A stretch of 64,000 nucleotides of DNA, from positions 1,248,001 through 1,312,000 of the forward strand of contig OY968764.1 in NCBI GenBank assembly GCA_963695335.1, written 5' to 3'. Positions 2,604 through 61,858 of this stretch are shown piece after piece. Numbering within the stretch: position 1 is the stretch's first letter; the number at the start of each line of letters is the position of its first letter. The notes beneath the pieces are model-generated. The model had not been told where the DNA came from and did not search any database. It saw only the letters and a list, made by a program, of their open reading frames with translations. The DNA is from an uncultured bacterium. Lineage in GTDB: Bacteria; Babelota; Babeliae; Babelales; Vermiphilaceae. The position numbers and the translations under genes are program-made.

Positions 2604-4049
2604 ATGAAGACCCATCTCATTTTTCAATTTGATCAATTATCTTTCCCCGCTCGCCCTGAGTGTTTTACGGAGTGTAACGTAGTAAAATGTATCGAAGGGT
2701 TAATCGAGCGAAAATTAGTAAAATATAGTTTTTTATGTTACATATTTCTAATATTTTTCGCACCTCTACATGGCATGGAACAAGAACAACAAAAAGGACC
2801 CATGGATTCCATCTGGTTTTATGACAAAAGCCATGTATTCGCGCAAGCAAATCAATATCACCAAGAACAACAATGGAAAAAAGCTACTGAAGAATACACT
2901 CGATATCTTACTGGAATAGAATTCGGGAATATGATGGCTAACATCTGCGGATTACATTATCAAATATATGGCCCCTCAGAATATGATAGAAATAAAGCGT
3001 ATTTAAATTTAGCTGCATGCCTCATGGCGCAACGCAAAGCTTCAAATTACTGGAAAAGCTTTGACGTATTATTAAACATTCCACTATCACAACGTATTTC
3101 ATCATCACTCATCAACGATCATCAAAAACCTCTCAAAGATCAAGTGGTTCTTGTGCGCACTGATCAAATTGGCCTTGGTGATGTTTTTTGTTTTTTATCA
3201 GCCGCTCATGAATTAAAAAAACGTACCGAATGCCATATTATATTATCCGTACCATATATTCTCAAGGGAGCATCAATAAGCGCTGCACAAAAATACGGAT
3301 TCAAATTAATTACCGCAATAGATAAACCTACAATCACCATTCCGTATGAAACACACTTAATCGCCCTTCTTGGCCATTTACATCTCACCCCTTCCCAAAT
3401 GAATCCTAAAAAAGTTGTCTTCACTGCTCCAGAACGTGCAATAAATGCAATACTCGAACAGATCGAGCCTGTATTAGAACAAGGTAACATTCTTGTTGTT
3501 GCCGATAGAGGAGAAGTTGGCCGCCAAACAAATCCTGCTCTTATTGGAGGTAAACAATTACCTCACAACAGTGATGATCACGGCAGACATCTTGATTCAG
3601 AACCATTCAATGCATTGCTCAAAAATAGTTCGACAATTACACTGCTTGACTGCAGTAACAAAAACAATCGCATTACTATTGATGAAAAACACAAAAATCG
3701 TTATCTCATTGTCGCTCCTGAGGAACAACCATTTGATACGATCATTGCTCTTGGACGTATTATGAGCACTAAAAAAAATATTATCGCATTTGGACCTGAC
3801 ATGGGACAAACAAATGTATTTATGCGTTCACTTGATCATGATGCGCAAGACCGTATGGCATTTATTATTCCTAATGCACAAGAACATGATATGCGTATGG
3901 AAGGAGAAGGTTCAAAATACAAACACATGATATCTAACTGTTGGGTATATAAATGCGCAACACCACAAAATCAAACACAAGTAATAGAACAAGCTTACAA
4001 TGATATGTTGCGATACACACTCAAAAATACCAATAACGAAAAAAAATAA
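2604..4049 (+). CDS. Secreted TPR plus degenerate glycosyltransferase (GT9-like) protein; REP inserted in the N-terminus
   Basis: RBS AAGGAG at 2591; hydrophobic segment ending LHG|MEQ; TPR-like helices; QIGLGDVFCF corresponds to EQGLGDTFQF of the neighbouring gene. Confidence 0.65.
   Translation: MKTHLIFQFDQLSFPARPECFTECNVVKCIEGLIERKLVKYSFLCYIFLIFFAPLHGMEQEQQKGPMDSIWFYDKSHVFAQANQYHQEQQWKKATEEYTRYLTGIEFGNMMANICGLHYQIYGPSEYDRNKAYLNLAACLMAQRKASNYWKSFDVLLNIPLSQRISSSLINDHQKPLKDQVVLVRTDQIGLGDVFCFLSAAHELKKRTECHIILSVPYILKGASISAAQKYGFKLITAIDKPTITIPYETHLIALLGHLHLTPSQMNPKKVVFTAPERAINAILEQIEPVLEQGNILVVADRGEVGRQTNPALIGGKQLPHNSDDHGRHLDSEPFNALLKNSSTITLLDCSNKNNRITIDEKHKNRYLIVAPEEQPFDTIIALGRIMSTKKNIIAFGPDMGQTNVFMRSLDHDAQDRMAFIIPNAQEHDMRMEGEGSKYKHMISNCWVYKCATPQNQTQVIEQAYNDMLRYTLKNTNNEKK
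2648..2710 (+). repeat. REP-like palindrome (long variant with internal hairpin) inside a coding sequence
   Basis: CGCTCGCCCTGAGTGTTTTACGG...GTAAAATGTATCGAAGGGTTAATCGAGCG, 63 nt; near-identical to intergenic copies at 7347 and 9296. Confidence 0.85.
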
Positions 4050-4082
4050 TTAAGAAATTACTGTATAAAAAAAGGAAAATTT

Positions 4083-5924
4083 ATGGAACAAACCAGAAGC
4101 AAAATTAATACCGCCATCCTTCGATACATTTTTGAAGACAAAAACACTCAGGACGAGCGGAAAGAAAAAACACACAACCGCACGCTCCTGCAAAGGAAAA
4201 TGTATCGAAGGGTTGCGGCTCTCTTATTTACCGCAACACTGTGCCATGCCACTGATCAACTGACGTTCCAAGCAATTGAAAGTTATCTCAAAAAACCGCA
4301 ACCTCACTCATATGTTGATTACCAATCATTTGAAGCGCTGTGCAAACATGCAAACGGTCTTTTTACCGCAGAACAGTATGAAGAAGCGATCGCATTTTAC
4401 AAACAAGCACTTGCACTCAACCCAACATGCGCGCAGATCTTTTTTAATCTTGGACAAGCACTGTATCACGCAAAAAAATATTCTGAAGCATTATATGCAT
4501 ACAAAAAAACTGTTCAACACAAAAAAGATCATTACCGTGCATATGTTCAGATTGGCAAAGTAATGATGGATGTAAAACAGACAAAAGATGCCATTGAACC
4601 ACTTAAACAATCTCTTATTCTTGAACCAAATAATCCTGATGCACGATTATTACTTTCAAAAGCATATAGCGAAAATAACCGCTTTGATGATTCAATCAAA
4701 ACTATCGTAGAAGGACTTAGGCTTGAACCTGGTCACATTAATATGACATTTGAACTTGGCAATATTTATAACACTGTCAACCGTCTTGATGAATCGCTTG
4801 AAATATATAAAGCTCTTGATCGCTTATTACCAAATAACCCATCAATTTTATACAACATTGCATTTACATATAAAAAACTGGGAGATTTACCAACATCTCT
4901 TCCCTATTACAATCAAGTGCTTGAACTTGAGCCTAATCATTCAGAAGCACTCTTCAGCCGTGGTCTTGCATATCTTGTAATTGGTGATTTTGAACGCGGA
5001 TGGCATGGATATGAATGGCGCTATAGTCGTCCTTCTCAAGGCTCGTTACGCAGTTATAATGAACCGCGTTGGGATGGCTCTGATTTAAATGGAAAAACAA
5101 TTCTCATTCATGCAGAACAAGGACTTGGCGATACATTCCAATTTATTCGTTACGCAAAACTGATTAAAGAAAAAAATGGCACAGTAATTGTTGCAGTACA
5201 AAAACCACTCGTCACACTCATGAAACGTTGCAAAGGAGTTGATCAGGTTATTTCACTTGATGATACTCCTCCACATTTTGATGTCCATTCTCCAATGTTA
5301 TCCTTACCATATGTTATGAAAACTCGTATTGACACTGTCCCAAATGAAATTCCATACATTCATACTGATGAAAAACTTGTTGCAGAATGGAAAGAAAAAT
5401 TAGCAGCAGATAAAAACTTTAAAATTGGTATCTGTTGGCAAGGAAATGATAATTATGCAACACCACTACTCCGAACAACCGTTGCACAAAAATCAGTGCA
5501 TCCAAAAGAATTTGAACCGATTTGCTCTGTACCTGGAGTCAGTATCTACAGCTTGCAAAAAATGACTGGGACTGATCAGCTCAAAGAAATTCCAAGTAGT
5601 ATGCACATCAAAACATTTGATGGTGATTTTGATCAAAGCCATGGGCGTTTTATGGATACTGCTGCGGTTATTAGAAATCTTGATCTTGTTATCACGGTTG
5701 ATACATCAATCAGCCATCTTGCGAGTGGCCTTGGCACACCAACATGGATTTTATTACCAAACCCTGCTGATTGGCGCTGGATGATTGACCGCAACGATTC
5801 TCCTTGGTATCCACAGGTTACTCGTTTATTTAAACAACCAACACCTGGTGATTGGAAATCTATGATTTGCGAAGTTGCGGATGAACTTAAAAAACATATA
5901 GGGAAAAATAATGAAAAAAAATAA
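4083..5924 (+). CDS. TPR repeat protein with C-terminal GT9-like glycosyltransferase domain; signal peptide-like N-terminus
   Basis: Multiple TPRs; EQGLGDTFQF, KIGICWQG, DLVITVDTSISHLA and DWRW...SPWYP motifs. Confidence 0.9.
   Translation: MEQTRSKINTAILRYIFEDKNTQDERKEKTHNRTLLQRKMYRRVAALLFTATLCHATDQLTFQAIESYLKKPQPHSYVDYQSFEALCKHANGLFTAEQYEEAIAFYKQALALNPTCAQIFFNLGQALYHAKKYSEALYAYKKTVQHKKDHYRAYVQIGKVMMDVKQTKDAIEPLKQSLILEPNNPDARLLLSKAYSENNRFDDSIKTIVEGLRLEPGHINMTFELGNIYNTVNRLDESLEIYKALDRLLPNNPSILYNIAFTYKKLGDLPTSLPYYNQVLELEPNHSEALFSRGLAYLVIGDFERGWHGYEWRYSRPSQGSLRSYNEPRWDGSDLNGKTILIHAEQGLGDTFQFIRYAKLIKEKNGTVIVAVQKPLVTLMKRCKGVDQVISLDDTPPHFDVHSPMLSLPYVMKTRIDTVPNEIPYIHTDEKLVAEWKEKLAADKNFKIGICWQGNDNYATPLLRTTVAQKSVHPKEFEPICSVPGVSIYSLQKMTGTDQLKEIPSSMHIKTFDGDFDQSHGRFMDTAAVIRNLDLVITVDTSISHLASGLGTPTWILLPNPADWRWMIDRNDSPWYPQVTRLFKQPTPGDWKSMICEVADELKKHIGKNNEKK
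4111..4218. repeat. REP doublet inside a coding sequence (108 nt)
   Basis: CCGCCATCCTTCGATACATTTTT...CACTCAGGACGAGCGG spacer CCGCACG...AAAATGTATCGAAGGGTTGCGG. Confidence 0.8.
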
Positions 5925-7317: not shown

Positions 7318-7346
7318 ATACAGAGATTAAACATTTAACTATTCAC

Positions 7347-7487: not shown

Positions 7488-7505
7488 ATAAAGCGATTAA
7501 GCGTA

Positions 7506-7541
7506 AAAGAAGGGGCTTTCGCAAACCCCTTCTCTATTCTT
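7506..7541. terminator. Probable bidirectional intrinsic terminator
   Basis: AAAAGAAGGGG-CTTTCGCAAA-CCCCTTCT hairpin between convergent genes. Confidence 0.6.
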
Positions 7542-7553
7542 CTTCAAAAACTT

Positions 7554-12504: not shown

Positions 12505-13479
12505 TTATTTCTCTTCATACTTCTTTTTTATTGCTTGCTCAAGAAGATTAATAATCGCATCTTTATCCTCAAATATATTCCAACTTGTTTTTTTGATATA
12601 TGCAAGAGGTGTAACCCCATTAAAATTAGTAAGTTCAGGGTCTGCCCCTGCATCAAGAAGAGAATTTATAACATCTGTATCATCACCGACTACTACAAGA
12701 GCATGCATTAAAGCAGTATTGCCATTAAAATCTTGCTGATTTATATTAAACTTTTTATGAGCAGTAATTAATTTTTGAAAGTCTGAATGTAAATCATACG
12801 AACATCCCGATTCTGCCGCTACCATAAGTGGTGTTATACCTTCATTATTTGCAAAATTTATATCTGCACCCAAACTAACAAGAAAATCAAAAAGAGGTAT
12901 ATCAAACCCCTTTGCAGCATACATTAAAACAGTTTTACCAGACTTATAAATAAAATTTATATCCGCTCCCTCTTTGCATAACTGTTGTATTTTGTCCTTA
13001 TATTTATTCCACTTATCATCACAAACATATGAATACAATTTTTTTTGCAAACCAAATTGTCGCTGCACTTCTTTTGTTGCTACTGCCTTTGCTGCTTCTT
13101 CATCAGACGTTTTAAATTTCTTGGCGAGAAATCTTACAAGATCAAAACAAAACTGTGATTGATTCATTAAACCATTCAAATCTTTATTTGTTCTTGCAAG
13201 AGCATTAATTGCTTTTCCTGCTTCTTTTAAAGATTCAGCATTACTATACTGACTTAATAAACTAATAATGTGGTGTTGAATTTCTAAAGGTAATTCAACA
13301 AAATTAAAAGAAGTAGAAGATTCTGATTTAATATATAAAAAAAATTGATCAACAGAACCAAGGATAGAATTTTTTAATACATTCATCCAATCGGATGATT
13401 CAGGTTCCATACCATGGATAGTAAACAGACTTGTCATCAACATAACTACACTTAATAATGTCCTTTTCACCATCTTCAT
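12505..13479 (-). CDS. Secreted F-box-like/ankyrin repeat protein
   Basis: Signal peptide IHG|MEP; FVELPLEIQHHIISLL; GKTVLMYAA, GITPLMVAA and GNTALMHAL repeats. Confidence 0.85.
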   Translation of the reverse strand: MKMVKRTLLSVVMLMTSLFTIHGMEPESSDWMNVLKNSILGSVDQFFLYIKSESSTSFNFVELPLEIQHHIISLLSQYSNAESLKEAGKAINALARTNKDLNGLMNQSQFCFDLVRFLAKKFKTSDEEAAKAVATKEVQRQFGLQKKLYSYVCDDKWNKYKDKIQQLCKEGADINFIYKSGKTVLMYAAKGFDIPLFDFLVSLGADINFANNEGITPLMVAAESGCSYDLHSDFQKLITAHKKFNINQQDFNGNTALMHALVVVGDDTDVINSLLDAGADPELTNFNGVTPLAYIKKTSWNIFEDKDAIINLLEQAIKKKYEEK

Positions 13480-20135: not shown

Positions 20136-21119
20136 TTATTTTGCAAAACAACTTAACGACCCCTTTTTTTTCTTTTTATTTTGTTCTTTATAAAGTGCAA
20201 CAATTGATTTACGGAAATATTTGGGTAATCTATCAAAAGATTGATATCCATTTACAGGAACATCAAAATTAATCCAATACGGTGCATATTCTCTATAATT
20301 GTCTGGTATTATTGCACCTTCAAAATCAAATTGCTTATATGCACCCAGTTGCAACTTATCTTGATTGTTAATTTTATATATCCAATCTTTTTCAAAGCAT
20401 AGATATGCTGAAGAGTTCAATAAAGCTTTTAACAATACTGGAAATTCTATAAGAGTGCTGACATCAAAAAATTCATATCTATCTTTCCTTCTTATTGTCC
20501 CTAAACATATTCTTTCTTCTTGATTACCATCAGCAGAAAGAGAAAACTCTATAACTTGTATATTGTCATGCGCATGCTTGCCTTTATGTAAAAGATAACA
20601 ACAAAAATCTCCTTTTTCATTAAAAAAAGCTGCTGGCTGATGAGGCAAATAATGAAAAGAGCCAGATGGTCCACCCCATGTTGTATAATCCGGAAGCAAC
20701 GTCACATTTAAACATCGCCGATCCATTATAAGCTCCTCCTGAAAAGGCCTTCCTCCTCGTAATCCAAAAGTTCGTAATGGCCAATTAGGTCGGTTGCCAA
20801 TTGCTATTTTGCCACACACTGCGCCATATTTATGCCATACAACACCTTCAAGGTTATTTTCTTTTTTTACAGCTTCCAGACAATAATCACTTTCGATAAA
20901 ATAGTGCTTTCGCCAATCAGCCGTCTGCAGCAAAATTGAATCATACTCTTTACTAACTTTTGCCAAAGCTTGAATCATTCGCCCATCGAACCATTCAACA
21001 CCATGCGTTAAAACAATATTCCATGCAATATTTTTATTTTCAGGGCTTACTACAAGAAGCTCCATAGCTGACAACAATGATGAATAAAAAACACACAAGA
21101 AAAAGATCAATACTTTCAT
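20136..21119 (-). CDS. Secreted hypothetical protein
   Basis: Signal peptide LLSA|MEL; RBS GGGAG; C-terminal basic patch KKKKKGSLSCFAK. Confidence 0.75.
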   Translation of the reverse strand: MKVLIFFLCVFYSSLLSAMELLVVSPENKNIAWNIVLTHGVEWFDGRMIQALAKVSKEYDSILLQTADWRKHYFIESDYCLEAVKKENNLEGVVWHKYGAVCGKIAIGNRPNWPLRTFGLRGGRPFQEELIMDRRCLNVTLLPDYTTWGGPSGSFHYLPHQPAAFFNEKGDFCCYLLHKGKHAHDNIQVIEFSLSADGNQEERICLGTIRRKDRYEFFDVSTLIEFPVLLKALLNSSAYLCFEKDWIYKINNQDKLQLGAYKQFDFEGAIIPDNYREYAPYWINFDVPVNGYQSFDRLPKYFRKSIVALYKEQNKKKKKGSLSCFAK

Positions 21120-28937: not shown

Positions 28938-29153
28938 TAAGTAACAAGGCTTTACCACAATTTCCATAGCCTGTGAGTGAAAGACGAAAAATGATACAAA
29001 ATTAAGTACAATATATTTTTTCATAAAAATAATCCTTTTACTAAAAGCTTATTAGACGATTACAATATAATCCCATTTCCCCTTAACAACAACTTTTTTT
29101 ACGGTACACTTGTTACCAGATGCTATAATTATAATCCATCATGAGGAATTTTC

Positions 29154-42401: not shown

Positions 42402-43229
42402 TTACTCTCTTGTTTGATTCTTGCCACAGTGCAATAACTTATACTCTTCATCGATACGGCTTAATTTATATGACACAGTACGATTGCCTACCAGAGCGTT
42501 TCTATAATCTATTTTTGCCTGCTCATCAACTATCGCATCTTTATATTCTTTCTCATTTTCATACCATTCACTAATATCATCTCGGATCTCACGAATTTGT
42601 TTGATTTTAGATGTCATTTTAAAATGATCTTCTTTCCAAGTATCAAAGCTATCTTCTAAAATAACTTGTGCCTGATTAAACAAACATGCATTTATATTAG
42701 AAATCATCGAATATAATACTAAACGCTTTGACCTATCTGCATTACAAAATTCATTCAATATAACTCTATACTGTATTAAATCTATATATAAGTCTTTAAT
42801 ATCTTCCAAATATGCAACTCTACCTTTTTTTTCAACATTCTCCAAAAATCTCTGCCTTATTGCATGTGATCTTCGCGCTGCTTGTATATTTTTTTGCATT
42901 CCTAACAACAATGCTCCACCGCAACATATAGGTGAATTACATGCATCTGCTTTGAGAATTCGCTCAGCAAGAAAATTTTCACATTTCTTTGCACCTAATT
43001 CTTTAATGTCTTCATACATTTCTGCTAAATCTTTTGACGTATATAGTGCATCTGAATAAAAACTAACACTATCTTTACCTACTCGAATATCAAAAGGCCT
43101 ACTATTATTTCTTTGTTGAATTTTACAAAAAACATTCGACATGCGCTTAGTTTTGACTATCATCGCATGTGTCACCGACACAAACATCACTGATGCACTC
43201 AATACAAAAAATATATTCTTACATTTCAT
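42402..43229 (-). CDS. Secreted protein, C-x4-CC family
   Basis: VTHA|MIVKTKRMSNVFCKIQQRNNS; ACNSPICC; RBS AAGGAG. Confidence 0.8.
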   Translation of the reverse strand: MKCKNIFFVLSASVMFVSVTHAMIVKTKRMSNVFCKIQQRNNSRPFDIRVGKDSVSFYSDALYTSKDLAEMYEDIKELGAKKCENFLAERILKADACNSPICCGGALLLGMQKNIQAARRSHAIRQRFLENVEKKGRVAYLEDIKDLYIDLIQYRVILNEFCNADRSKRLVLYSMISNINACLFNQAQVILEDSFDTWKEDHFKMTSKIKQIREIRDDISEWYENEKEYKDAIVDEQAKIDYRNALVGNRTVSYKLSRIDEEYKLLHCGKNQTRE

Positions 43230-43263: not shown

Positions 43264-44226
43264 TTATTCAATACTACTATGGCTACTTGAAGAACTATCC
43301 GAAGAAAAACTACTATCCCTATATGATTGCGAAGAATAACTCTCCATATTTGACATATACGATGAACTTGATGAACTATCAGAATGGGCAGTTGCACTAT
43401 CACAAATTTGCTTTGCCACATATGCATGCATCATCAACATATTTAAATCGCGCGCAGGATCGTCATTTCTACGGCCATCGTCAGCTTTATCTTGTTGCCG
43501 TGGTGTATGTTGTTGTAGATTACACTCTTGATTATGTTGCTGCTGATTATCATATCGCTGCGTCTTTGGGACCATCAAAGTAATAGATTTAATCTTCTCA
43601 CAATATTCTTTATCGCTCTGTTTTTTTGCTTCAGCACTATCAAAAAATTCATCAGAAAGAGCTATCTGTTTTATATGACAATCTTTTTTATGCTCAAGAA
43701 GACCCATAATTTTTTGATATCCTTCAATATAAATTTTATCTTGAGCAAGTAATTGCTTTGCTTCTTCTTCTTTATTATGCAATTTTTGTAAACCATCTTT
43801 TACCCGTACTAAAAAATCACGTCCCTGATTAATGTCACAAAAAAGTTCAGGTCTTTTTTCATAAGCAAAGAGTGGGTGAAGATTCTTACAACATTGTGGG
43901 TTTTTACACACCTCTTTTTTGATATAAACATTGGAACATCTCTCGCTACCAATGCCTGCAACTTCATTATGTAACCTGTTAGCTGTAATTATCATCTTAG
44001 TAATTGGGCAAGTATTTAGAGCTTCTTCTATACAACAAATAGCCACAGGAACACCAACAAACCATATTAATGCTCCAAAACTTCCCCTTTTTTGCACCAG
44101 GGGACTCATGCTATTCACCCGATACATAGTTTTTGGTATTCGTCTTCTAACCAATTGCATTGCAGATATTTCTGATGCAATCATCATTGATGCACACAAA
44201 CCAAAAAATATATTCTTACCATTCAT
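43264..44226 (-). CDS. Secreted protein, C-x4-CC family, with TM helix and Ser-rich tail
   Basis: Start ATG 44226 after AAGGAGCAGCAG; EISA|MQLVRRRIPKTMYRVNSMSPLVQKRGSF; VCKNPQCC. Confidence 0.8.
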   Translation of the reverse strand: MNGKNIFFGLCASMMIASEISAMQLVRRRIPKTMYRVNSMSPLVQKRGSFGALIWFVGVPVAICCIEEALNTCPITKMIITANRLHNEVAGIGSERCSNVYIKKEVCKNPQCCKNLHPLFAYEKRPELFCDINQGRDFLVRVKDGLQKLHNKEEEAKQLLAQDKIYIEGYQKIMGLLEHKKDCHIKQIALSDEFFDSAEAKKQSDKEYCEKIKSITLMVPKTQRYDNQQQHNQECNLQQHTPRQQDKADDGRRNDDPARDLNMLMMHAYVAKQICDSATAHSDSSSSSSYMSNMESYSSQSYRDSSFSSDSSSSSHSSIE

Positions 44227-45480: not shown

Positions 45481-46596
45481 TTATTCACAACGCCCAGCTT
45501 CATGGGCATGATCTCTATCCCACTGGTTAATATACCCTTCCACCATTTGTCGCCGATCAGCAGGAATAGGATGTAGAGGATAAATAATTTCTTTTATTAT
45601 CCTACTATTGAGTACTCTCTCTAGCCTACTATCTGATATTTTATTTTTCTTATAATAGTCTGTTTCATGTTCCTTCCAATATTTTGCAAACTCTTCAAGC
45701 TCTAATCGCGATACAGCATGTTCACACGCAAATGTATCCGCAGGTGCCTCAAACCAATGTTTCGATAAAAATCCACCTAAAACAGCATTGGCCAATGCTT
45801 TTGGTACAATGGCACCAATAGCAGAACCAGATCGCAACATAGTCTTTAAAAATGTTTTTGGTTGCGGTTGAATATTATATAATTTTCTCAATAGTTTAGT
45901 TGCTCCAAAAGATAATGCCTCAACTCCAAGAGGGATTGTTGTGAGAGCATACACATATTTATTACTATCCTCATGAACAATATGACCAAATTCATGATTT
46001 ACAATCATTGATTCTCGAGCGATTTTTGCTTTACATTGAGCAACATTTTGTTTCTCTACATCAATCTGTGATTCTGCAGATTTAATTAATTGGTTATCAG
46101 CACGCGACAAAAGAAAAGATTTAAATATTCCCCTTTTTTCTTTTTGTTGCTTGGCATATTCAAATTCTTTTAAAGCTTGATGAAGTCTTTCTTCTGCTAG
46201 CGGCTGATTGACTAAGGCTTCATGCAATTGATCGCAAACTTCTGAAGAAACTGATACCACACCAATATGTTCATTAGCACGAGCATGAGCATGACGTGAA
46301 TTCTTATGAGTCACTAAGAATATAGGTTTAGAATGAGGCATATTTGCTTGTTTTTTTTGACCTTCAAACCAATCATTAAGAGCTGGTTGCGTGGGCAACT
46401 CTTCATCAAAATCCAATACATTTACTTTTTCTAATGCTTTTTTATAGTTCTTAGAATGATACAATCCAAGAGTTGGCAACGTTGTTACGCCAACAAAACG
46501 AGCTAATTTAAAGACTTTTCCACCCATGGCAAAAGATGGGATCATAAACGTAAAAAGCAGCATTAGAGCTGCATATTGTAAATAACTTTTATTCAT
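45481..46596 (-). CDS. Secreted zinc metalloprotease, M48-like
   Basis: PSFA|MGG; HEFGH, EAPAD and HPIPADR motifs; hydrophobic helices after HExxH. Confidence 0.8.
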   Translation of the reverse strand: MNKSYLQYAALMLLFTFMIPSFAMGGKVFKLARFVGVTTLPTLGLYHSKNYKKALEKVNVLDFDEELPTQPALNDWFEGQKKQANMPHSKPIFLVTHKNSRHAHARANEHIGVVSVSSEVCDQLHEALVNQPLAEERLHQALKEFEYAKQQKEKRGIFKSFLLSRADNQLIKSAESQIDVEKQNVAQCKAKIARESMIVNHEFGHIVHEDSNKYVYALTTIPLGVEALSFGATKLLRKLYNIQPQPKTFLKTMLRSGSAIGAIVPKALANAVLGGFLSKHWFEAPADTFACEHAVSRLELEEFAKYWKEHETDYYKKNKISDSRLERVLNSRIIKEIIYPLHPIPADRRQMVEGYINQWDRDHAHEAGRCE

Positions 46597-46754: not shown

Positions 46755-48029
46755 TTACTTTTGTGTCTCAATAAAAGGATTTACTCCACCATGCTTCCTT
46801 ATTATTGCCTTATTTATTAAAGACAAAATTTCTGCATCTGATGTAATTGAAGGTTGCGGAAAACGTGTTGCTGCAGATTGTATTGCTGCTGCATACCCCT
46901 CTGGATAAATAATCTTTATAGCATTATTACGTGGCGTTACACCAAATTTATTGACAAACTCTGGGTCTGCTCCTGCATCAAGAAGTTCTTTAATCATTAA
47001 TTTATTTTTTGTATTAATTGCAGCCGAAAGAGCTGTAGTTCCTTTCTTATTCTGTTGATCTATTGCGATATAAGGATTATTTAAAAGACATTTGACTGCT
47101 TCCATGTGGCCCTCATCCACAGCAAATAATAATGCTGTATCTCCATACATAGGAGTATCTTTATTAACATCTGCTCCATACTCAAGAAGTATAGTAATCA
47201 TAGGGCAGTTATTGTCTTGTGCTGCATGCATAAGAGCTGTTAGTCCACCATTGCTTGGCTGATCTATCTTAATTCGAGGGTTACTTAAAAGACATTTAAC
47301 TGCTTCCATATGTCCTTGAGCAACAGCAAGTGCTAATACTGGGATTCCAGACTCTAAAACAATTTTATTAATATCTGCTCCATGCTCAAGAAGTATAGTA
47401 ATCATAGGACAATTGTTGTAAAACACTGCAAGCGAAAGAGCTGTGCCCCCATCAGTACCTACTTGATCTATCTTAATTTGCGGATTACTTAAAAGACATT
47501 TAACCGCTTCCATATGTCCTTCAGCAACAGCAAACCGCAATGCTGTCGTTCCTTTCGTATTACCTTTATTGATATCTGCCCCATGCTCAAGCAATATATT
47601 AATAACAGGACAATGATTTTCTTGTGCCGCAAACATAAGGGCTGTACTCCCAAAACTATCTTGTTGGTCTACCTTAATGTGAGGATTATCTAAAAGACAT
47701 TGAACTGCTTCTATATGCCCCTTTTGAGCAGCAAATATTAATGCTGTCCTCCCATCAGAATCAATTACGTTAACATCAATTCCATCATCAAGAAGTTTTG
47801 TAATTGTAGAGCAATCATTTTCCTTTGCTGCGTTCAAGAAGGCATCACTTTGTCCTCCTTGAATATATTTTTTATATGCTAAATAACCACCCCCAATAGC
47901 CGCTCCGATAAGTGCAATCAATCCTATTTTTTTTGCGGTACTTGATTCTTCTTCCATGCCATAATTATGATATGGTGTAATTATCAGCAAAAATGCAGTG
48001 ATCATGCTCAATTTTTTTGTACAATCCAT
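46755..48029 (-). CDS. Secreted ankyrin repeat protein with N-terminal TM helix
   Basis: NYG|MEE; IGLIALIGAAIGGGYLAY; about 9 ankyrin repeats with a two-repeat (~201-204 nt) period. Confidence 0.92.
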   Translation of the reverse strand: MDCTKKLSMITAFLLIITPYHNYGMEEESSTAKKIGLIALIGAAIGGGYLAYKKYIQGGQSDAFLNAAKENDCSTITKLLDDGIDVNVIDSDGRTALIFAAQKGHIEAVQCLLDNPHIKVDQQDSFGSTALMFAAQENHCPVINILLEHGADINKGNTKGTTALRFAVAEGHMEAVKCLLSNPQIKIDQVGTDGGTALSLAVFYNNCPMITILLEHGADINKIVLESGIPVLALAVAQGHMEAVKCLLSNPRIKIDQPSNGGLTALMHAAQDNNCPMITILLEYGADVNKDTPMYGDTALLFAVDEGHMEAVKCLLNNPYIAIDQQNKKGTTALSAAINTKNKLMIKELLDAGADPEFVNKFGVTPRNNAIKIIYPEGYAAAIQSAATRFPQPSITSDAEILSLINKAIIRKHGGVNPFIETQK

Positions 48030-48226: not shown

Positions 48227-49408
48227 TTATAATTGGCAGCCATGACTTTTAACTAAATTATACATAATAAAGCGCATAACTCCCGCAGGGATGTTCTGCA
48301 TAGTTCCATAAAAATCAATGGTGTAATTTTTTAAAAACCAATATTTAAAAGCAAACGAGCGTTGCTTATCAATAGTATCAACCATCTCTTTGAGCCAACC
48401 TTTTGGCTCTCCTTGTTCCACATCGAATGCGGTTTTTTCCACACCATCATCTTCATGATACCAAAATGGATATTCCATTCGTTTAATGCTAGCACGTGTA
48501 ACACTATCACTATTTACAAAATACTGTAACAACAACCATGCATATTCTTGATCATTATTGCGTGCTGCAATCATAAGGGGAGAAAACTTTTCAAACGACT
48601 GAGTACAATCTGGATCGGCACCATATGCAAGGAGCGATAGTGCTATAATACAATAATGCACTTTTCTATTTCCATGTTTTCCAAAGCTCCAACAGCGTTT
48701 TTTGGCGATATCCAACAACAAATTATTGTTGATTTTATTTTTGCAATCAGAGCCAACGGCAAGAAGCTGCTCTATTTTTTCAAAATCCATTGTTTTAAAA
48801 GCCAAAGAAAGTAACGTATGTGGACTGTACTTTTCCACCAGTTGTTTAAATTTCATTCCCGTTCTTTTTGGTCTGGTAGTATCTCTGCTTTTATATTTTG
48901 CCATTTTATGACTTAACCAACCATGGCTTACTTGATAGCTCGCATTCAAATACCAAGAATCTTGCAAATCTTCTGGTGTAAACTGCCTATCTGCATCGGT
49001 CACAATATCAAACAACTGATCCATTTTTTGCCGTATAGTAAAAAAAACGCCGCCTTTTGAATTAAGGCAGCGAGCAACTGTTTCATCACACATCCAACGC
49101 TGATGTTGTGCAATACTCTTAATTATTTTTTGGGCACTCTTTTCTTTAGAAAATCTTTCAGAAAAAAACCTATTAACACATGTCACTGTCTGAAGATCTC
49201 TACCAAAGTGGTGTACCACACTATCATTGCAATGATTGTACTTTCTACCACCTGATTGATCTACAATAAAATGATTTTCAGCATACAGCCAGCTCAGAAT
49301 CTTTACCAACACTTGATCTCTAACTTTTTCTTCTTGCTGTATCACCAAATCCATACTATGCAATGCAGTAGTAATAATAAACAATGCAAAAACTATTTTT
49401 TTATGCAT
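48227..49408 (-). CDS. Secreted ankyrin repeat protein
   Basis: LHS|MDL; LLAYGADPD; SPLMIAARNN. Confidence 0.8.
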   Translation of the reverse strand: MHKKIVFALFIITTALHSMDLVIQQEEKVRDQVLVKILSWLYAENHFIVDQSGGRKYNHCNDSVVHHFGRDLQTVTCVNRFFSERFSKEKSAQKIIKSIAQHQRWMCDETVARCLNSKGGVFFTIRQKMDQLFDIVTDADRQFTPEDLQDSWYLNASYQVSHGWLSHKMAKYKSRDTTRPKRTGMKFKQLVEKYSPHTLLSLAFKTMDFEKIEQLLAVGSDCKNKINNNLLLDIAKKRCWSFGKHGNRKVHYCIIALSLLAYGADPDCTQSFEKFSPLMIAARNNDQEYAWLLLQYFVNSDSVTRASIKRMEYPFWYHEDDGVEKTAFDVEQGEPKGWLKEMVDTIDKQRSFAFKYWFLKNYTIDFYGTMQNIPAGVMRFIMYNLVKSHGCQL

Positions 49409-54972: not shown

Positions 54973-55803
54973 ATGCGATATATAATTCTTCTCTTAAGTT
55001 TATATACAACACCGTTGTATGGTATGAAATCTTTAATTGAAAAAGAGCCACGCTATTGTTTTAAAAACTTAACGGTCTTCAGCTATGATGGCTGGGAAGG
55101 TAATGCTATTTTCATCGCAAAAAACGCCGCATTAGTTCATTCCAATACACCAATAATAAACAACACAACCAATGACGTTAAAAAACCAGTAAAACATCCT
55201 GAGATAAAAAACCTCTTTTTTAGAGAGCCGCAACAGAATACCTATGATCTTGTTACTGTATATAATCCCTACATGCTCAATAAAAAAAACATACTCATTC
55301 ATCTCAAAGCAATTCATAATTATCTTGCACCATCGGGCAAATTCTGTTTTTTAATAAGAACAAAAGCAAACACTCTCTCTGTTCCTGAACAAGCATTTGC
55401 AACTATCTTCCCCCACGAGTATTTATCTACTCAACGCGCAAAAGAAGAACAAATAAAAGCAAACTATTTTACTGATGATGAACTCAAGGAACTTATCTGG
55501 TCAAATGGATATAATATCAATGTCTACGAAAATAAAACCTATGAAACCATTTTACCCGATATACACGATTATCAAGAAGCACTTGCAGCAACATTTATTC
55601 ACAATATACGCCATACCAATGTATCAAAAACAATAACACAACAGCTCACTGAGCAATTTATACAACTTGTTATGCAACAAAGTAAAAGAAATCGTCGCAA
55701 CCAAATAATAGAATCTTGGAATTTTACAAAAATAATCTTATGCAAAACAGATAAACTCAGGCCTCCTGTATTTTTGAACAATTCACTATTATCAACGCAC
55801 TAA
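54973..55803 (+). CDS. Secreted degenerate SAM-methyltransferase-fold protein
   Basis: LYG|MKS; YDLVTV...AIHNYLAPSGKFCF; motif I not recognisable. Confidence 0.6.
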   Translation: MRYIILLLSLYTTPLYGMKSLIEKEPRYCFKNLTVFSYDGWEGNAIFIAKNAALVHSNTPIINNTTNDVKKPVKHPEIKNLFFREPQQNTYDLVTVYNPYMLNKKNILIHLKAIHNYLAPSGKFCFLIRTKANTLSVPEQAFATIFPHEYLSTQRAKEEQIKANYFTDDELKELIWSNGYNINVYENKTYETILPDIHDYQEALAATFIHNIRHTNVSKTITQQLTEQFIQLVMQQSKRNRRNQIIESWNFTKIILCKTDKLRPPVFLNNSLLSTH

Positions 55804-55888: not shown

Positions 55889-56761
55889 ATGAAAAAATAT
55901 GTTTTACTTGCAGCATTCATAATCAGCGCACTTAATGGAATGGATAATCAACAACCTAAGAACTCATCTATTGTTTCACAACTTTTAGAACATTATAATA
56001 TTCCCATTCAAAATCGTGCCATTTTTCATATTGGATGTACCACAGGAAAAAGATCTGTCGAACTTGCACAAAAAGCATCTCGCGTTCATGTATTCGATCA
56101 AAATAAAAATTTTATTGATACTGCGCAAAACACATACCAAGATATCAAAAACATTACGTTTGAACAATGTAATCCCATGAATTTTAATTTTCCAAGACAA
56201 TGCGATGTGGCAATCATTGATTACACCACAATAAACGATTATGCGGAGATTAATGAACACAAACAAGAACTATTCCAATGTATGCATCAACATTTATTAC
56301 AAAATGGTGAAATATTGCTTTCTATTACAACAACTGAAAACACACCACATCCAAATATTGATGCTGCCAAAGAAATGGCTTCAGTTCTACAAGCATACAT
56401 ACCTGGTACAACAGAAGAAGAAATTATCAATCTTATGACACCATCGTACCCTTCTTTGCAAGACCTACTCACTGCACTCGAAGAAACTGGCTTTGAGATT
56501 ATTACTCATAAAGAACAAATTATTACTAAAGAAATGAACGAAAAAAAATTCTTGAACAGCTGTGAATATATCATTACCCAAAACCCAATATCTGAAAAAA
56601 TACAAGATCCTAATCTTAGAAATGACCTCACTCATCACTTTATACATTCTTATCTAAAACATTTAACCCAGTTTGTACATATACACAATTTGCAAAAAAG
56701 GCATGCAAATACTTACTTAGAACCACTAATTACTACGATCATTCATGCGCGTAAAAAATAA
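55889..56761 (+). CDS. Secreted SAM-methyltransferase-like protein
   Basis: LNG|MDN; IFHIGCTTG, VHVFD, HLLQNGEI, LEETGFEII, IIHARKK. Confidence 0.75.
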   Translation: MKKYVLLAAFIISALNGMDNQQPKNSSIVSQLLEHYNIPIQNRAIFHIGCTTGKRSVELAQKASRVHVFDQNKNFIDTAQNTYQDIKNITFEQCNPMNFNFPRQCDVAIIDYTTINDYAEINEHKQELFQCMHQHLLQNGEILLSITTTENTPHPNIDAAKEMASVLQAYIPGTTEEEIINLMTPSYPSLQDLLTALEETGFEIITHKEQIITKEMNEKKFLNSCEYIITQNPISEKIQDPNLRNDLTHHFIHSYLKHLTQFVHIHNLQKRHANTYLEPLITTIIHARKK

Positions 56762-56773: not shown

Positions 56774-57706
56774 GTGAAAAAGTATCTTATTGCTCTGTGC
56801 TTCATCAACAGCCTCAACTGCATGGAAAAGGAATCTTCTCTTAAAAAAACTGAAATATCCAAAAAAATAAGCAAACGTAAAGATTATGATGCGTACGCTT
56901 ATGACAACATCAAAATGAATATTGAAGTAGAAAATACTGTTTTACAATGGTTTCAAGATTGCAACATTGATACCACTGAAAAAACGATTCTGAACATGGA
57001 TTGCAACACAGGTAATATTAATGCAAGACTTGCAGAAACAGCAAAATATGTTCATGGAATTTCCGAAAGTAAAAATTTTATTAATTTTGTACTCAACAAA
57101 CACACAAATGCTATACAGGATGGAAAACTCTCTTTTGAATATGTCAAAACAAAAAATTTTGAATCAAACCCTCAGCAATATGACATAGCAATCACATGTT
57201 CTATGAATAACTGGAAAACTCATAGTGAAAATATCTTACGTAAAGTTAACAAAGGCCTCAAACCAAATGGAGATTTTTTCGCAGTTCTTTTAACAAGTGA
57301 TAATCCTGAAATTTACAGCTATGTTGCTGCTCAAAAATTTATAAAAAAACATATTTCTTCTTATCTTAATTTAGCCAAATTAACAGGCTGGTCGCCTTTA
57401 TCTAAAGAAGCCCTCATAAGTCTCTTTACAACAACAGGCTTTGAAATTATTACCCTCGAAAATCAATCTTGTAAAAGAACAATGACCAAAGATGATATAC
57501 GTGAAAGCGCTAAATATGTGGGTAAAAGCACCCCATTGGCAAAATACATACCAGATAAAAAACTTGAATCAGGCTTAAATAAGTATGCTGATCTGTGTAT
57601 AGAAGAATTACAATGTGTTGATAAAGATAAAGATGAATATACATTTGAGGTATTACTCACTGTTGTTCATGCACGCAAAACTCAAGAAATTGATAATAAA
57701 AAATAA
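56774..57706 (+). CDS. Secreted SAM-methyltransferase-like protein
   Basis: LNC|MEK; ILNMDCNTG, YDIAIT, GLKPNGDF, TTGFEII, VVHARK. Confidence 0.75.
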   Translation: MKKYLIALCFINSLNCMEKESSLKKTEISKKISKRKDYDAYAYDNIKMNIEVENTVLQWFQDCNIDTTEKTILNMDCNTGNINARLAETAKYVHGISESKNFINFVLNKHTNAIQDGKLSFEYVKTKNFESNPQQYDIAITCSMNNWKTHSENILRKVNKGLKPNGDFFAVLLTSDNPEIYSYVAAQKFIKKHISSYLNLAKLTGWSPLSKEALISLFTTTGFEIITLENQSCKRTMTKDDIRESAKYVGKSTPLAKYIPDKKLESGLNKYADLCIEELQCVDKDKDEYTFEVLLTVVHARKTQEIDNKK

Positions 57707-58157: not shown

Positions 58158-59936
58158 TTATTTATTGCGCTCTGTATTTATAAATGCTTCTACCGCCTCC
58201 ATAAATGTATCAAAAACTGACATTATCTTAGAAGAGGCATGCCTTTTTACAATATCTTCCGCATAGTCTTTATCAAATCCAGCTGTTAAACACACATTAG
58301 TAAACTCATTTTCCTCATGTGATGCATAACGTAATATGTACATTTCTACAGCGATAAATAACCCAACTTTTTTTGCTAAATCAGGGTGTAATCTTTTAAA
58401 TCCTTCATAATCTTTTTTTACACGATCAAATTCATCCATTAATTCCTTAAGGGTATACCTATACATATACTCTCCCTTTCGGATCTTTCCTACTCTTTCA
58501 TTAAGAGCAAACATCATATCAATTACCCTCTTGGCAATCACTTTAATAACAAGTTGTGACGGGATTTTTAAATAATCAAAATAATTTGCTAGGTCAATCA
58601 TTGCATCAAATCCCCAATCCAATGACTTTTGTTTCATACCCCATTCAACATCCCATGTAGATTTTTCTTGAGCGTTCAAATGTTCAATTTTATTAATTTC
58701 AGAGATTACATAATGGATTCTTTCTATGACATGAAAAGGAAATCTCATGGAAATAGCAATCTGTCCATTCTCTTTGCCCAAATCTTCCACAAAGTTTTTA
58801 AGAACTTCACTTTGTTGTAGTATATCCCATGAAAAAACTACTCCATCAGCTATTCCTTCTTGATATATAAAAAACTCACCTGGTTTTAAAGTTTTTTCTA
58901 TCGCAACCACTTTTGCAGCTGCTTCTTCTCTTGTCAGCTTTCTTGCAAAAAATCTCATTTTTCCTTGAGCTACTAGTTCTTGTTCTTGAGCTCGTTGCTT
59001 CTCTATAAAATCTTCCAAGGCGCCTATAAAATACTCTTCAAACCAAGCTGCTAAAGGAGATTTTTTTAATATCTCATCTGCATGTGCTATATACTCATCA
59101 CTTAAATCTATTTCTTTAAATAAATCAGAAGTAGTTTTCAAAAAAACACGATAAGAATATGGTTTTATACATGGAACAAGCTTATAAGCCTTTTTACTAT
59201 ACAGCTCTTTTTTTACCAGCTCAGCCACATCACTATTCAATAATTTTAATTGTGCAAAAAAGTTTTGTACCTCTTTACATACCATCTCTAATTCATTAAA
59301 AGTTATTTTACGGCTAAAATTATCATGTATTACAAGAAAAACGGTATCAACCGTTTTCATTATCCTTGCCGCAATACATACAACAAGCATAGAAATATCA
59401 AGATCTAAAAAGTTATACAAATCAGCAACCCCAACAAGCATTGGAAAGTCTAAAGAAGCAATATCAAATTCTTGTTTTTTACGCCAATCACGTATGTATT
59501 GCTGCTTTGCCTCTTCACTTTCTTTTGTCTTTAAGACATCTAAAAGATCAAATTCGTCTTGTAATATGGAAAAAACTTTTTTGATTACATCATAATGAGC
59601 ATACAAAGGAATAGCACCACTACCCATATCGCCTAAATCCTCAAGCATACTCTTTGTAGAAGGAGCCATTTGCAACAGTTCATGAGGCACAACAATCCCA
59701 TTGTCTGTTCCTGCTTGGTATACAAAAAACTCTCCTGACTTTAAATTTTTTTCTATATCGACAATCTTTTTTGCCGCTTCCATTTCTGCAGTTTTTGCCG
59801 CAGTTGTGGCTCTTTCTCTTTCTATGAGCTTTTTAGTCGATGCTTGGCTCTTTGGCGTCATCTTCATAGAAAAAACATTACCCATAAAAATTATCGTCAA
59901 GAAAGCAATCAATCGAGTTACTCCATTACTCTTCAT
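58158..59936 (-). CDS. Secreted protein with two tandem Skp1/BTB-like domains
   Basis: VFS|MKM; internal duplication; KSMLEDLG..AIPL..VIKKV..W..LVGVADLYNFLDL and LKNFVEDLG..VIERI..W..MIDLANYFDYLKI. Confidence 0.7.
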   Translation of the reverse strand: MKSNGVTRLIAFLTIIFMGNVFSMKMTPKSQASTKKLIERERATTAAKTAEMEAAKKIVDIEKNLKSGEFFVYQAGTDNGIVVPHELLQMAPSTKSMLEDLGDMGSGAIPLYAHYDVIKKVFSILQDEFDLLDVLKTKESEEAKQQYIRDWRKKQEFDIASLDFPMLVGVADLYNFLDLDISMLVVCIAARIMKTVDTVFLVIHDNFSRKITFNELEMVCKEVQNFFAQLKLLNSDVAELVKKELYSKKAYKLVPCIKPYSYRVFLKTTSDLFKEIDLSDEYIAHADEILKKSPLAAWFEEYFIGALEDFIEKQRAQEQELVAQGKMRFFARKLTREEAAAKVVAIEKTLKPGEFFIYQEGIADGVVFSWDILQQSEVLKNFVEDLGKENGQIAISMRFPFHVIERIHYVISEINKIEHLNAQEKSTWDVEWGMKQKSLDWGFDAMIDLANYFDYLKIPSQLVIKVIAKRVIDMMFALNERVGKIRKGEYMYRYTLKELMDEFDRVKKDYEGFKRLHPDLAKKVGLFIAVEMYILRYASHEENEFTNVCLTAGFDKDYAEDIVKRHASSKIMSVFDTFMEAVEAFINTERNK

Positions 59937-59968: not shown

Positions 59969-60916
59969 TTATATAGCACCAGCTGATTCATTCATTTCAG
60001 CTATAGCCTGAGCTATAAACGGATCTTTTTTTAAACCTTCACTCATGTGGATTCCTGCAGCAATAAGCAATTTCATCATATCAATTGCTGTTCTATGTGC
60101 TGCTTGCGCATTAGCACCCTTTATCACAGCCATTTGCTTATAAAAATATGCTGCTGTAAGTACATCCTTGGAAGTAGGGTAGTTTACATCAACGCCGTAT
60201 TGAGTCAAAATTTTAACGGCATCGATATTACCCTCGCTTAAAGCTATCAGTAATGGTGTTTTAAGTGATGCAAGACGTTTCATCTCATAATTTAATTTTG
60301 CTCCATGTTCCAAAAGAGCACTCAGAGCCTGAAGATTATTCATACGTATCGCATCCGCTAATGGCGTAAAACCATAAATACTCGTAAATTCTAAATCAAC
60401 GCCTTTGTTGATAAAATCTTTAAACCTATCAATCGAAAATTGTGCAGGGTTAGAAATAAAGCTTTCAAAAGCAATCTGTAGGTCAAAACGCTTTTCAGCA
60501 CAATTCATTTCATCTATTCTCTGTGCTACCATGGCATCAGACCATATCTCAAACTTTTCTGACAGATGCTTTATGAATTTCAAACAAAAATCAGGATCTT
60601 TAACCAATTCGTTTAATGTTTTATTTATTTGTGAAAGACGACTCACTGTTTGAGCACAAGTTTCAATAGTATCTCCAGTACCATGTAACAACAGTAAGCC
60701 AGCTATCTTATTTTGAACATTTATAGGAAGATAATGGGCTAATAACGAAAATTCATCTGATTCAAACCCAACATTATCAAGTAAAATATTGCCAATATAT
60801 TCAACATAATCTCGGAATTTTGGTTTTTCTAATGATGTTGATTGCTCAGGTTCCATGGTATGAATATTGCGAGCAAAAACAATAACAACAAATAATAGAA
60901 AATATAACCTCTTCAT
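59969..60916 (-). CDS. Secreted F-box-like/ankyrin repeat protein, paralog of 12505..13479
   Basis: IHT|MEP; LPINVQNKIAGLL; FCLKFIKHLSEKF; GFTPLADA; KTPLLIAL. Confidence 0.85.
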   Translation of the reverse strand: MKRLYFLLFVVIVFARNIHTMEPEQSTSLEKPKFRDYVEYIGNILLDNVGFESDEFSLLAHYLPINVQNKIAGLLLLHGTGDTIETCAQTVSRLSQINKTLNELVKDPDFCLKFIKHLSEKFEIWSDAMVAQRIDEMNCAEKRFDLQIAFESFISNPAQFSIDRFKDFINKGVDLEFTSIYGFTPLADAIRMNNLQALSALLEHGAKLNYEMKRLASLKTPLLIALSEGNIDAVKILTQYGVDVNYPTSKDVLTAAYFYKQMAVIKGANAQAAHRTAIDMMKLLIAAGIHMSEGLKKDPFIAQAIAEMNESAGAI

Positions 60917-61183
60917 AAAACTCTCCTAGTTCTATTATACAAAACATATTTATTTTCAATTATAATAATAAAGGATGGGGGGGGTAAAAAACAATAGTTT
61001 TTCGAAAATCTATTGAAATTTATGAAAATGCCCTACTGGCCAATCTATAGAAATCTTCAGTGAGACGGACAAATCAGTAAGATAAGTAACATTATACCAG
61101 ACGAGTTATATTCAATCACATTGTCTTAAAAAAGAAAAAAGGCCAAAACTTATAGTCTTGACCCATCAAAATCGTACCAATAA

Positions 61184-61858
61184 TCAGTAATACTCACTTC
61201 TTGCATGCCAAGAACGTCCACCAAAAGAAAGAATGCGTTCTGCCATTTCAACTTTTTTTCGCTCTTTTTCCTCTTGCTCATACGCCTTAAACAAATCAAT
61301 AAATTTTTGTACCTCAGGATATTGCTCTTTAAGATTATTGGCATAATGATAACCGCTCAGATACTCACCATTGCATGTTACTGGCTTTCTAGTATCCAAA
61401 AGCCATTTGATAACTGGCACCATTTCATCTACCGTGGATGTTTCAACTGCCTCTCTAATATTAAGACAATACGCATTCCAAACAGCCACTGTATTTCTTT
61501 CAAGCAACCATAAAGCAAGCTTATCTTTTTTATTTTTTACTGCATAAGCAAATTCTTGATGCTGTTCGAGCGCACCCATACTTTTCCAATAAAACATTTG
61601 ATGCATATCATTTTTAGCAAAAAAAGCTTCCTTATAATTTTTATTCAATTCATCTTGTGAATGAACAATTTTTAAATATTTTGTACAGGTACATCGTAAA
61701 GTATCCCGTGCTGGCCGATCTAAGCGTGGACAAACAGAAGTAATGAATAAATCATCTGTAATACATATGCCACTGGAATGATTTGTTGTTGTAAGTTCCA
61801 TTGCAGATATTGGAAAAAAAGATAGTAAAAAAATGATAGCAAGCCATTTGTATTGCAT
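61184..61858 (-). CDS. Secreted hypothetical protein, paralog of 63620..>64000
   Basis: ISA|MEL; AVETSTVDEMVPVIKWLLD; tail WHARSEYY. Confidence 0.8.
   Translation of the reverse strand: MQYKWLAIIFLLSFFPISAMELTTTNHSSGICITDDLFITSVCPRLDRPARDTLRCTCTKYLKIVHSQDELNKNYKEAFFAKNDMHQMFYWKSMGALEQHQEFAYAVKNKKDKLALWLLERNTVAVWNAYCLNIREAVETSTVDEMVPVIKWLLDTRKPVTCNGEYLSGYHYANNLKEQYPEVQKFIDLFKAYEQEEKERKKVEMAERILSFGGRSWHARSEYY

Follow-up and report, generated by a model that had tools for sequence, protein, structure and literature searches.

Methionine directly follows the predicted signal peptide cleavage site (position +1) in a large class of exported proteins encoded by G000, the genome of an uncultured Babelota bacterium (family Vermiphilaceae; GenBank assembly GCA_963695335.1). 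The tryptophanyl-tRNA synthetase of G000 has its closest named relatives in records of Babeliales, Dependentiae and TM6, in agreement with this placement. Babelota are obligate intracellular bacteria of protists. The analysed stretch (the window) comprises 64,000 nucleotides of contig OY968764.1 (positions 1,248,001 to 1,312,000 of the forward strand). An initial annotation had listed 27 window genes in which a hydrophobic signal is immediately followed by Met, and all 27 were recovered by our signal model, with Met at the predicted signal peptidase cut and with the same +2 residues. The feature is real and genome-wide, with cleavage before Met predicted: +1 Met was found in 193/494 soluble signal-bearing proteins of G000, compared to a background of 2.0% (p 3e-189).

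G000 (1.37 Mb, one contig, 94% complete) yielded 1194 genes with a purpose-written gene caller. Cleavage sites were predicted with a purpose-written model of the n-, h- and c-regions, using generic weights. Because this model scores nothing at +1 apart from a penalty for Pro, it is blind to +1 Met. The 494 proteins comprised 193 with Met and 301 with another residue at +1; a Pfam scan with at most 430 residues per scan covered 489 of them, the rest being non-Met proteins (5/301). After shuffling, +1 Met occurred in only 17–29/494, and its share stayed at 31–41% across five score cut-offs. The Met-rule genes were scattered over the whole chromosome. One Met call (L008:1128-2147) resembles a pseudopilin false positive. 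As a positive control, the same model placed Gln at +1 in 16/39 Bacteroidota signals; as a negative control, it placed Met there in 0/100 signals of outgroup loci. The 40 plasmid records listed out of 365 contained no protist endosymbiont, such as Holosporales, Rickettsiales, Chlamydiae or Amoebophilus, for comparison. Under the Q-rule, Gln occupies +1 in 59–77% of cases in Porphyromonas (PMC5837995), so the model probably undercounts. One Babelota (TM6/Dependentiae) member bears signals on the products of 44% of its genes and on 78% of its ankyrin proteins (PMC6561590), and another on 79/126 ankyrin proteins, with type II as the sole secretion system detected (PMC4378268; PMC4776705).

The consensus of the 193 Met proteins is Leu/Ile/Thr/Ser/Val at -3, Ala/Gly/Ser/Cys/Thr at -1 and Met at +1, and the signals are 17–24 residues long in 178/193. 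Glu (121), Lys (17), Asp (14) and Gln (11) led at +2, and Glu stood at +4 in 73/193. G000 has one Sec-type peptidase gene (S26 family, LepB), and no second signal peptidase was found in this genome. A lipoprotein reading was ruled out, as 0/31 Cys-Met sites fit a lipobox, and CaaX boxes (2/193) are not a feature of the Met proteins.

The signal-bearing proteins formed 335 BLAST clusters, and Met was represented in ~108 of them. Across 129 paralog pairs in which one or both members had Met, identity was 0.74 at +1, 0.60 at +2 and 0.12–0.42 at other positions, compared to 0.09 at +1 in 97 pairs without Met. On these identities, Met is kept while the signals diverge, and it is apparently selected, not merely inherited. 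Where Met was swapped within families, Ser or Ala mostly took its place while Glu was retained. Among 120 homologs of thymidylate kinase (Tmk), 34 were signal-bearing, of which 27 had +1 Met. In the query clade of a quick tree, Met was present in 19/20, and four more proteins were annotated from the Met itself. The signal-bearing kinases fell into at least two groups of this tree, beside ordinary copies (L029:3974-4834; P0121-P0240).

Other starts were also recurrent in G000. Ser-Glu was the commonest non-Met start (21/301). In a second class, Met stood at +3 in 10/30 proteins with Lys at +1, compared to 5/313 others; further Lys proteins begin Lys-Gln/Val-Val/Ile/Leu, often with Pro/Thr/Gln-rich stretches (examples of the class are L013:17302-19574, L025:17996-19228 and L045:13014-14303). 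One family shows both the Lys-type and the plain Met start. The frequent Thr, Cys and Pro at -1 genome-wide suggest a relaxed signal peptidase.

Distribution across protein classes and lineages

Carriage of Met was split by function. The initial annotation had stated that all ankyrin and WD40 proteins carry it, which is true in the window (6 ankyrin and 2 WD40 proteins) but not genome-wide: among 50 ankyrin, WD40 and LRR proteins, 38 had Met at the model cut, and 5 or 6 more had it a few residues off (43–44/50 with these nearby sites). The remaining starts were SE, SE, SP, AQ, TE and HN. In contrast, only 2/36 envelope-type proteins had +1 Met (a GH3 hydrolase and the product of one gene in a tandem DegP-like pair; p 2e-11 for the split), and the suspicion that +1 Met might be equally common in periplasmic housekeeping proteins was thus not borne out. 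The envelope set contained BamA, a second POTRA protein, two secretins, OmpH, BamD, TolB, rotamases, binding proteins, penicillin-binding proteins and others; 21 of the 36, hand-picked from Pfam matches after removal of 15 lipoproteins, pilins and anchors, were considered cleavable. A +1 residue that is not an N-degron was present in 43/50 ankyrin/WD40/LRR proteins, compared to 5/21 cleavable envelope proteins (p 8e-7).

An F-box-like motif was found in 15/193 Met and 3/301 non-Met proteins, and most Met proteins have no Pfam family. Several cytosolic-type enzymes bear a signal and Met: the second thymidylate kinase, the sole orotidine monophosphate (OMP) decarboxylase, the sole GalU-type transferase and methyltransferases. 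Orthologs of the GalU-type transferase in G010, G018 and G019 have no signal. TPR proteins, collagen-like proteins and C11 proteases of G000 lack Met.

Some loci of these enzyme groups deserve mention. The GalU-type gene (L057:10894-11778) has a second Met at +5, from which a cytoplasmic form is possible. The signal-bearing OMP decarboxylase (L012:17891-18754) adjoins a signal-bearing dihydroorotate dehydrogenase-phosphoribosyltransferase fusion (L013:9-1631), a predicted and seemingly exported pyrimidine pathway. A PI3/PI4-kinase-like protein (L007:6573-10702), a myo-inositol oxygenase (L057:15282-16055) and a macrodomain protein (L054:9932-10495) are signal-bearing without Met.

The range of the rule was sampled with 20–140 kb per genome, a small sample in which kin are not independent. 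In family f1, +1 Met was found in 11/45 (G005) and 8/27 (G018). The counts were 12/43 in f2, 5/17 in f12, 4/29 in f8, 4/65 in f10, 2/27 in f4, 1/7 in f3 and 1/61 in f5 (G040, with Ser in 15), and 0/9, 0/14 and 0/8 in f6, f7 and f11. Ten loci with Babelota-like tryptophanyl-tRNA synthetase genes gave 30/73. Among ankyrin proteins, Met was present in 1/31 of G040 (Ala 9, Ser 5, Thr 5), 3/20 of G041, 3/7 of G039, 0/6 of G043 and 1/6 of G047, a count that leaves out further loci of G010, G017, G019, G007 and G028. Among 120 ankyrin homologs, 12 of the 47 signal-bearing ones had Met, including three distant Met-Asp proteins. The preferred +2 residue shifts by lineage (Met-Asp in G005, Met-Phe in G018). 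Clearly, the Met rule holds at the level of families and not across the phylum.

The window genes and the residues behind Met

All 27 window genes showed the n-, h- and c-regions of a Sec signal peptidase I substrate, with a small residue at -1 and a neutral one at -3, and scored 6.2–14.4, gene 2604 only when scored from its hydrophobic core. Met was the single best cut in 25/27; in genes 59969 and 45481 its posterior was 0.56 and 0.52. The features are:

2604: 2604..2777, forward; leader of 57 residues into which a repeat is inserted, followed by Met-Glu (codon of Met at 2775-2777); no Pfam family
12505: 13408..13479, reverse; signal and Met-Glu; ankyrin protein
20136: 21063..21119, reverse; signal and Met-Glu; no family
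23999: 23999..24052, forward; signal and Met-Glu; ankyrin protein
24988: 24988..25044, forward; signal and Met-Lys; ankyrin protein
26589: 26589..26726, forward; signal and Met-Leu, then a 26-residue basic acid-free stretch; presequence-like by inspection
27273/29024: 28965..29024, reverse; signal and Met-Glu; remainder of the split gene at 27273-27947
29154: 29154..29213, forward; signal and Met-Glu; WD40 protein
30495: 30495..30554, forward; signal and Met-Glu; first paralog of a tandem family
31614: 31614..31673, forward; signal and Met-Glu; second paralog of the 30495 family
32656: 32656..32715, forward; signal and Met-Glu; third paralog of the 30495 family
33707: 33707..33766, forward; signal and Met-Glu; fourth paralog of the 30495 family
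35664: 35664..35726, forward; signal and Met-Gln; no family
36737: 36737..36799, forward; signal and Met-Glu; weak RWD (E2-fold) match; leader DNA in common with the unrelated 37774
37774: 37774..37836, forward; signal and Met-Glu; WD40 protein
41734: 42250..42396, reverse; signal and Met-Gln, a 27-residue basic acid-free stretch ending in Arg-x-Phe, then one membrane segment
42402: 43092..43229, reverse; signal and Met-Ile, then a 24-residue basic acid-free stretch
43264: 44029..44226, reverse; signal and Met-Gln, a basic acid-free stretch and a hydrophobic segment, by inspection
45481: 46432..46596, reverse; signal and Met-Gly, then a 32-residue basic acid-free stretch; M48-like metallopeptidase
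46755: 47955..48029, reverse; signal and Met-Glu; ankyrin protein
48227: 49352..49408, reverse; signal and Met-Asp; weak ankyrin match
54973: 54973..55026, forward; signal and Met-Lys; weak methyltransferase match
55889: 55889..55942, forward; signal and Met-Asp; S-adenosylmethionine methyltransferase domain
56774: 56774..56824, forward; signal (GTG start) and Met-Glu; methyltransferase domain
58158: 59865..59936, reverse; signal and Met-Lys; weak Skp1/POZ-like match
59969: 60854..60916, reverse; signal and Met-Glu; ankyrin protein; Met is the second-best single cut
61184: 61799..61858, reverse; signal and Met-Glu; no family

Twelve further window genes scored as signal-bearing without +1 Met, where the initial annotation had counted about ten, and three of these are probably membrane anchors; the two window TPR proteins also lack +1 Met. 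The Skp1-like and E2-like labels of the initial annotation proved weak (Skp1_POZ E 0.0013, RWD E 0.046, Atlas lead <0.9). Gene 2604 has no start codon beside its hydrophobic core and has a leader of 57 residues, and the signal of 43264 starts at 44226, not 44259. In gene 27273/29024, a transposase gene (28046-28924) separates the two parts. Atlas neighbours of the M48-like peptidase include eukaryotic clusters.

The surroundings of these genes held further features. A dispersed repeat of ~60 bases (2631-2700), with 55 other matches in the genome, lies in frame within the 2604 leader. A second transposase-like gene (34389-35138) interrupts 33707, whose likely tail is at 35120-35536, and an incomplete copy of the 61184 3' half, with no signal, lies at 63620-63949. 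The stretch 2604-9291 contains three glycosyltransferase-like genes with signals, two of which also encode TPRs, and a signal-bearing DUF6165 gene, and only 2604 has Met.

Some Met starts are followed by what may be an address. A mitochondrial presequence is a basic, acid-free N-terminus with an Arg-2/-3 cut motif, and the basic acid-free starts are ones that we take to resemble such presequences. These stretches, of at least 15 residues, followed Met in 15/65 non-acidic Met starts compared to 13/192 others (p 8e-4) and 6% internally, and in the window they cluster at 41734-46596. The strict motif Arg-x-Phe/Tyr-Ser-Ser/Thr was found in 4/106 compared to 4/889 in G000 and its relatives (p 0.006), with few cases and a pattern defined post hoc. 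Arg followed in 6/17 Met-Lys starts compared to 4% expected, a start resembling a nuclear localization signal (NLS). Altered host mitochondria wrap cultured Babelota (PMC6561590; PMC8812299).

Explanations for the +1 methionine

We lean, at slightly better than even confidence, towards the explanation that these are Sec-exported effectors for which cleavage yields a host-style, degron-free start. Signal peptidase I would leave a start that resembles the product of a host ribosome, and this regenerated eukaryote-style start would escape N-degron ligases in the host cell. The same Met could cap an address, to mitochondria or the nucleus in some cases, and envelope proteins, which would never meet host ligases, show no Met rule. 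This explains the functional split, the residues avoided at +2, the Met-to-Ser/Ala swaps, the families with Ala/Ser/Thr starts and the phytoplasma case described below. The enzymes that need cytosolic substrates and bear a signal and Met also count in its favour.

By the substrate definition of the eukaryotic N-terminal acetyltransferase NatB (PMC10611716), 150/193 starts belong to its class, with Asp, Glu, Asn or Gln after Met, and 43/193 do not. Small residues at +2 were found in 6/193 compared to 37% expected, and bulky hydrophobic ones in 13/193 compared to 26% expected. In human cells, UBR4 and UBR2 capture unacetylated Met-hydrophobic starts and Met-Glu much less, and unacetylated starts of the NatA type are readable by IAP and ZER1/ZYG11B ligases (PMC10611716). 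The avoidance of small and bulky residues matches the stability of Met-Asp/Met-Glu and the weak capture of Met-Glu by UBR4. NatA-E act during translation (PMC10611716), which makes the access of NatB to delivered proteins doubtful. Nor is NatB sufficient on its own, because presequence-like and NLS-like starts also follow Met. The initial proposal of a eukaryote-like, stable N-terminus fits best, but its framing around NatB was too narrow given the 43 starts outside the class, the excess of Glu over Asp (121 vs 14) and the relatives that prefer Met-Asp (G005) or Met-Phe (G018); it had also overlooked the starts that resemble presequences or NLSs, as well as the precedent in phytoplasmas.

Several observations weigh against this host-side explanation. 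Ser, Ala and Thr are also stable under the yeast N-end rule, so that the specificity for Met exceeds the need. Avoidance of degrons does not predict so specific a preference for Glu at +2 (121/193) and +4 (73/193), and neither Glu at +4 nor the exclusivity of Met is explained. A degron-type residue stood at the model cut in 9/31 ankyrin proteins of G040, and 3/34 secreted thymidylate kinases start with Arg, Ile or Gln. Met is absent from likely host-directed proteins, namely a seven-member kinase-like cluster (PI3K/HipA-like matches in two), a PP2C paralog, the dihydroorotate dehydrogenase fusion adjoining the Met-bearing OMP decarboxylase, the myo-inositol oxygenase and the macrodomain protein. 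A looser form of the presequence motif did not reach significance (p 0.07), examples had been seen before the patterns were chosen, and a bipartite NLS pattern fits only 1/6 Met-Lys-Arg starts. The cut sites are predictions of a purpose-written model, delivery is likewise predicted, and the N-degron rules applied here come from yeast and human cells and would have to hold in protists. Babelota have been found within protist cytoplasm (PMC12172432), and Babela grows in a vacuole (PMC4378268), from which cytosolic access would need an extra step.

Alternatively, Met(-Glu-x-Glu) could be a linear tag, read after cleavage by a machine of the bacterial or vacuolar membrane that selects cargo for export beyond the periplasm. 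We consider this possible but rather unlikely, and with equal reserve we name either secretin, the second Omp85 and vesicle loading as candidate readers. Such a tag would account for the sharp split between effector and envelope proteins, for Glu at +2 and +4 and for the exclusivity of Met, and the ~108 unrelated clusters span more folds than a conformational signal would allow. The second start class (Lys-Gln/Val-Met/Val) and the recruited enzymes that gained a new Met-Glu ahead of an apparent old start Met are in line with it, and in complex plastids a +1 residue does sort proteins (PMC6115763). Two secretins were present in 31/31 genomes, and G000 has type II machinery (two secretins, GspC, G and H) and two Omp85 genes. 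A type III secretion marker was found in 0/31 genomes, and TolC, VirB4 (type IV), the type VI sheath and TatC were not found in the 94% complete G000. Vesicle release from bacteria in the food vacuole has been reported (PMC6561590). However, the secretin pair is present in all sampled families, yet Met is rare in f4, f5, f6, f7, f10 and f11 and in their ankyrin proteins; +2 varies by lineage; phytoplasmas have +1 Met without a second membrane; and no receptor gene for the tag was found. The sorting tag put forward in the initial annotation could still exist, but it cannot be phylum-wide, given the mostly Met-poor ankyrin proteins of f4, f5, f7, f10 and f11.

The second Omp85 of G000 (L035:6-2891, 962 residues, with POTRA domains) also occurs in G040 and is a candidate for the export step.

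The host-side explanation and an export tag are not mutually exclusive. Speculatively, the first residues after the signal might form a code in which an export step (a secretin partner, the second Omp85 or vesicle loading) uses the Met(-Glu-x-Glu) tag to direct any protein to the host, the residues behind it address cytosol, nucleus or mitochondria, and Lys-Gln/Val-Met marks a second route. If true, this would constitute bacterial bipartite leaders made of a Sec signal and a presequence.

It is unlikely that Met at P1' simply suits the Babelota signal peptidase and offsets weak -1/-3 sites. Ala at -1 was indeed less frequent in the Met set (71/193 vs 171/301 others), where Cys, Gly, Ser, Thr and Pro were commoner, but this difference may partly reflect model bias. 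The sole LepB must also cut BamA, the secretins, TolB and OmpH without Met, and the functional split and the +2 pattern would stay unexplained.

Shared history is less likely still, whether as Met-Glu leader cassettes copied before new genes or as signals added ahead of original start codons. Leader shuffling occurs, as in the unrelated 36737 and 37774, but rarely: leader DNA was shared by just 40/18,181 unrelated Met pairs, compared to 53/44,961 non-Met pairs, which rules out a single cassette. The flanks diverge while Met stays, and what looks like the former start Met of the GalU-type, HIT and Tmk genes sits further downstream. History as the sole cause is already largely refuted.

Finally, Met might be a real or alternative start, the "signal" being AT-rich upstream DNA read in frame, as gene calls in public records frequently start from this Met (4/24 in the Tmk clade) and the signal-bearing GalU-type and OMP decarboxylase genes are the only ones, so that a cytoplasmic form might be needed. 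A ribosome-binding (Shine-Dalgarno-type) motif, however, preceded the first start in 98/193 genes and the +1 ATG in 1/193, below its rate before internal ATGs (230/6203), and starts picked by this motif alone still gave +1 Met in 90/242. The narrow range of signal lengths argues in the same direction. There was no Kozak-type pattern at +2 (Ala 2, Val 0, Gly 0); since Ala, Val and Gly codons also begin with G, the constraint acts on amino acids, and the GAG share among Glu codons at +2 (22/121) equals that of the genome (0.18). Motif placement, +2 residues and codon use thus rule out the start-codon and Kozak readings, and the true-start objection anticipated in the initial annotation is very improbable indeed.

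Comparison with known systems

Babelota spend a large share of their genes on secreted proteins without known function. The Met rule provides a sequence marker that parts ~200 candidate effectors of one genome, most of them without a Pfam family, from its envelope proteins, and it singles out specific proteins that may underlie the mitochondrial remodelling around cultured members. The rule suggests that quality control of N-termini in the host acts as a force on Sec-delivered effectors, with phytoplasmas as a possible independent case. It is also a warning for annotation, as public gene calls that start at this Met hide the signal.

In the PEXEL system of Plasmodium, where a dedicated protease acts on a site with Arg at -3 as well as Leu at -1, cleavage likewise exposes x-Glu/Gln/Asp on host-bound proteins. 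Here, -3 is Leu/Ile/Thr/Ser/Val and -1 is small; Arg was absent from -3 and Leu from -1 in all 193 proteins, in a model that itself favours a small -1.

The known ankyrin effectors of Babelota (PMC6561590, PMC4378268) similarly belong to a large Sec secretome; signals are present on most of the ankyrin proteins, and a type II system alone was detected for secretion. The main texts of these papers do not contain the word "methionine", and neither a +1 rule nor presequence-like starts are described there. No report of a Met rule over ~100 unrelated effector families, or of presequence-like starts behind a Sec signal, was found in the literature searched, which left most subscription papers and all supplements outside.

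The bipartite leaders of complex plastids also combine a signal, a +1 residue (Phe) and a transit peptide read after cleavage (PMC6115763). They lead from a eukaryote into a plastid, with a sorting role proven by mutation, whereas the leaders described here would lead from a bacterium into its host, with a predicted role.

The phytoplasma SVM signal (Pfam PF12113; 10.1101/411140, PMC8026896) is similar in that Sec effectors of an intracellular bacterium have Met after the predicted cut: its consensus ends in Met at 33, and the cut is given as 32-33 (10.1101/411140). This Met is uncommented in the available text of both sources, and methionine is unmentioned in that of PMC8026896. SVM is one homologous family of 32 residues in a single-membrane bacterium, in contrast to the ~20-residue, mostly unrelated signals described here, and 0/25 window N-termini matched PF12113 at E 10.

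The Bacteroidetes Q-rule (PMC5837995), which has been linked to stability (PMC10653852), is likewise a lineage-specific +1 residue on many unrelated signal peptidase I substrates. It differs in that the residue is Gln and not Met; in G000, Met occupied +1 in 196/513 and Gln did not rank among the eight most frequent residues there. The Met rule implies no modifying enzyme, and in Babelota it marks effectors, spares envelope proteins and is patchy across the phylum. A conserved +1 residue after cleavage is thus a known kind of feature, as in the Q-rule and the +1 Phe of plastids, and Met after the SVM signal is part of a Pfam consensus.

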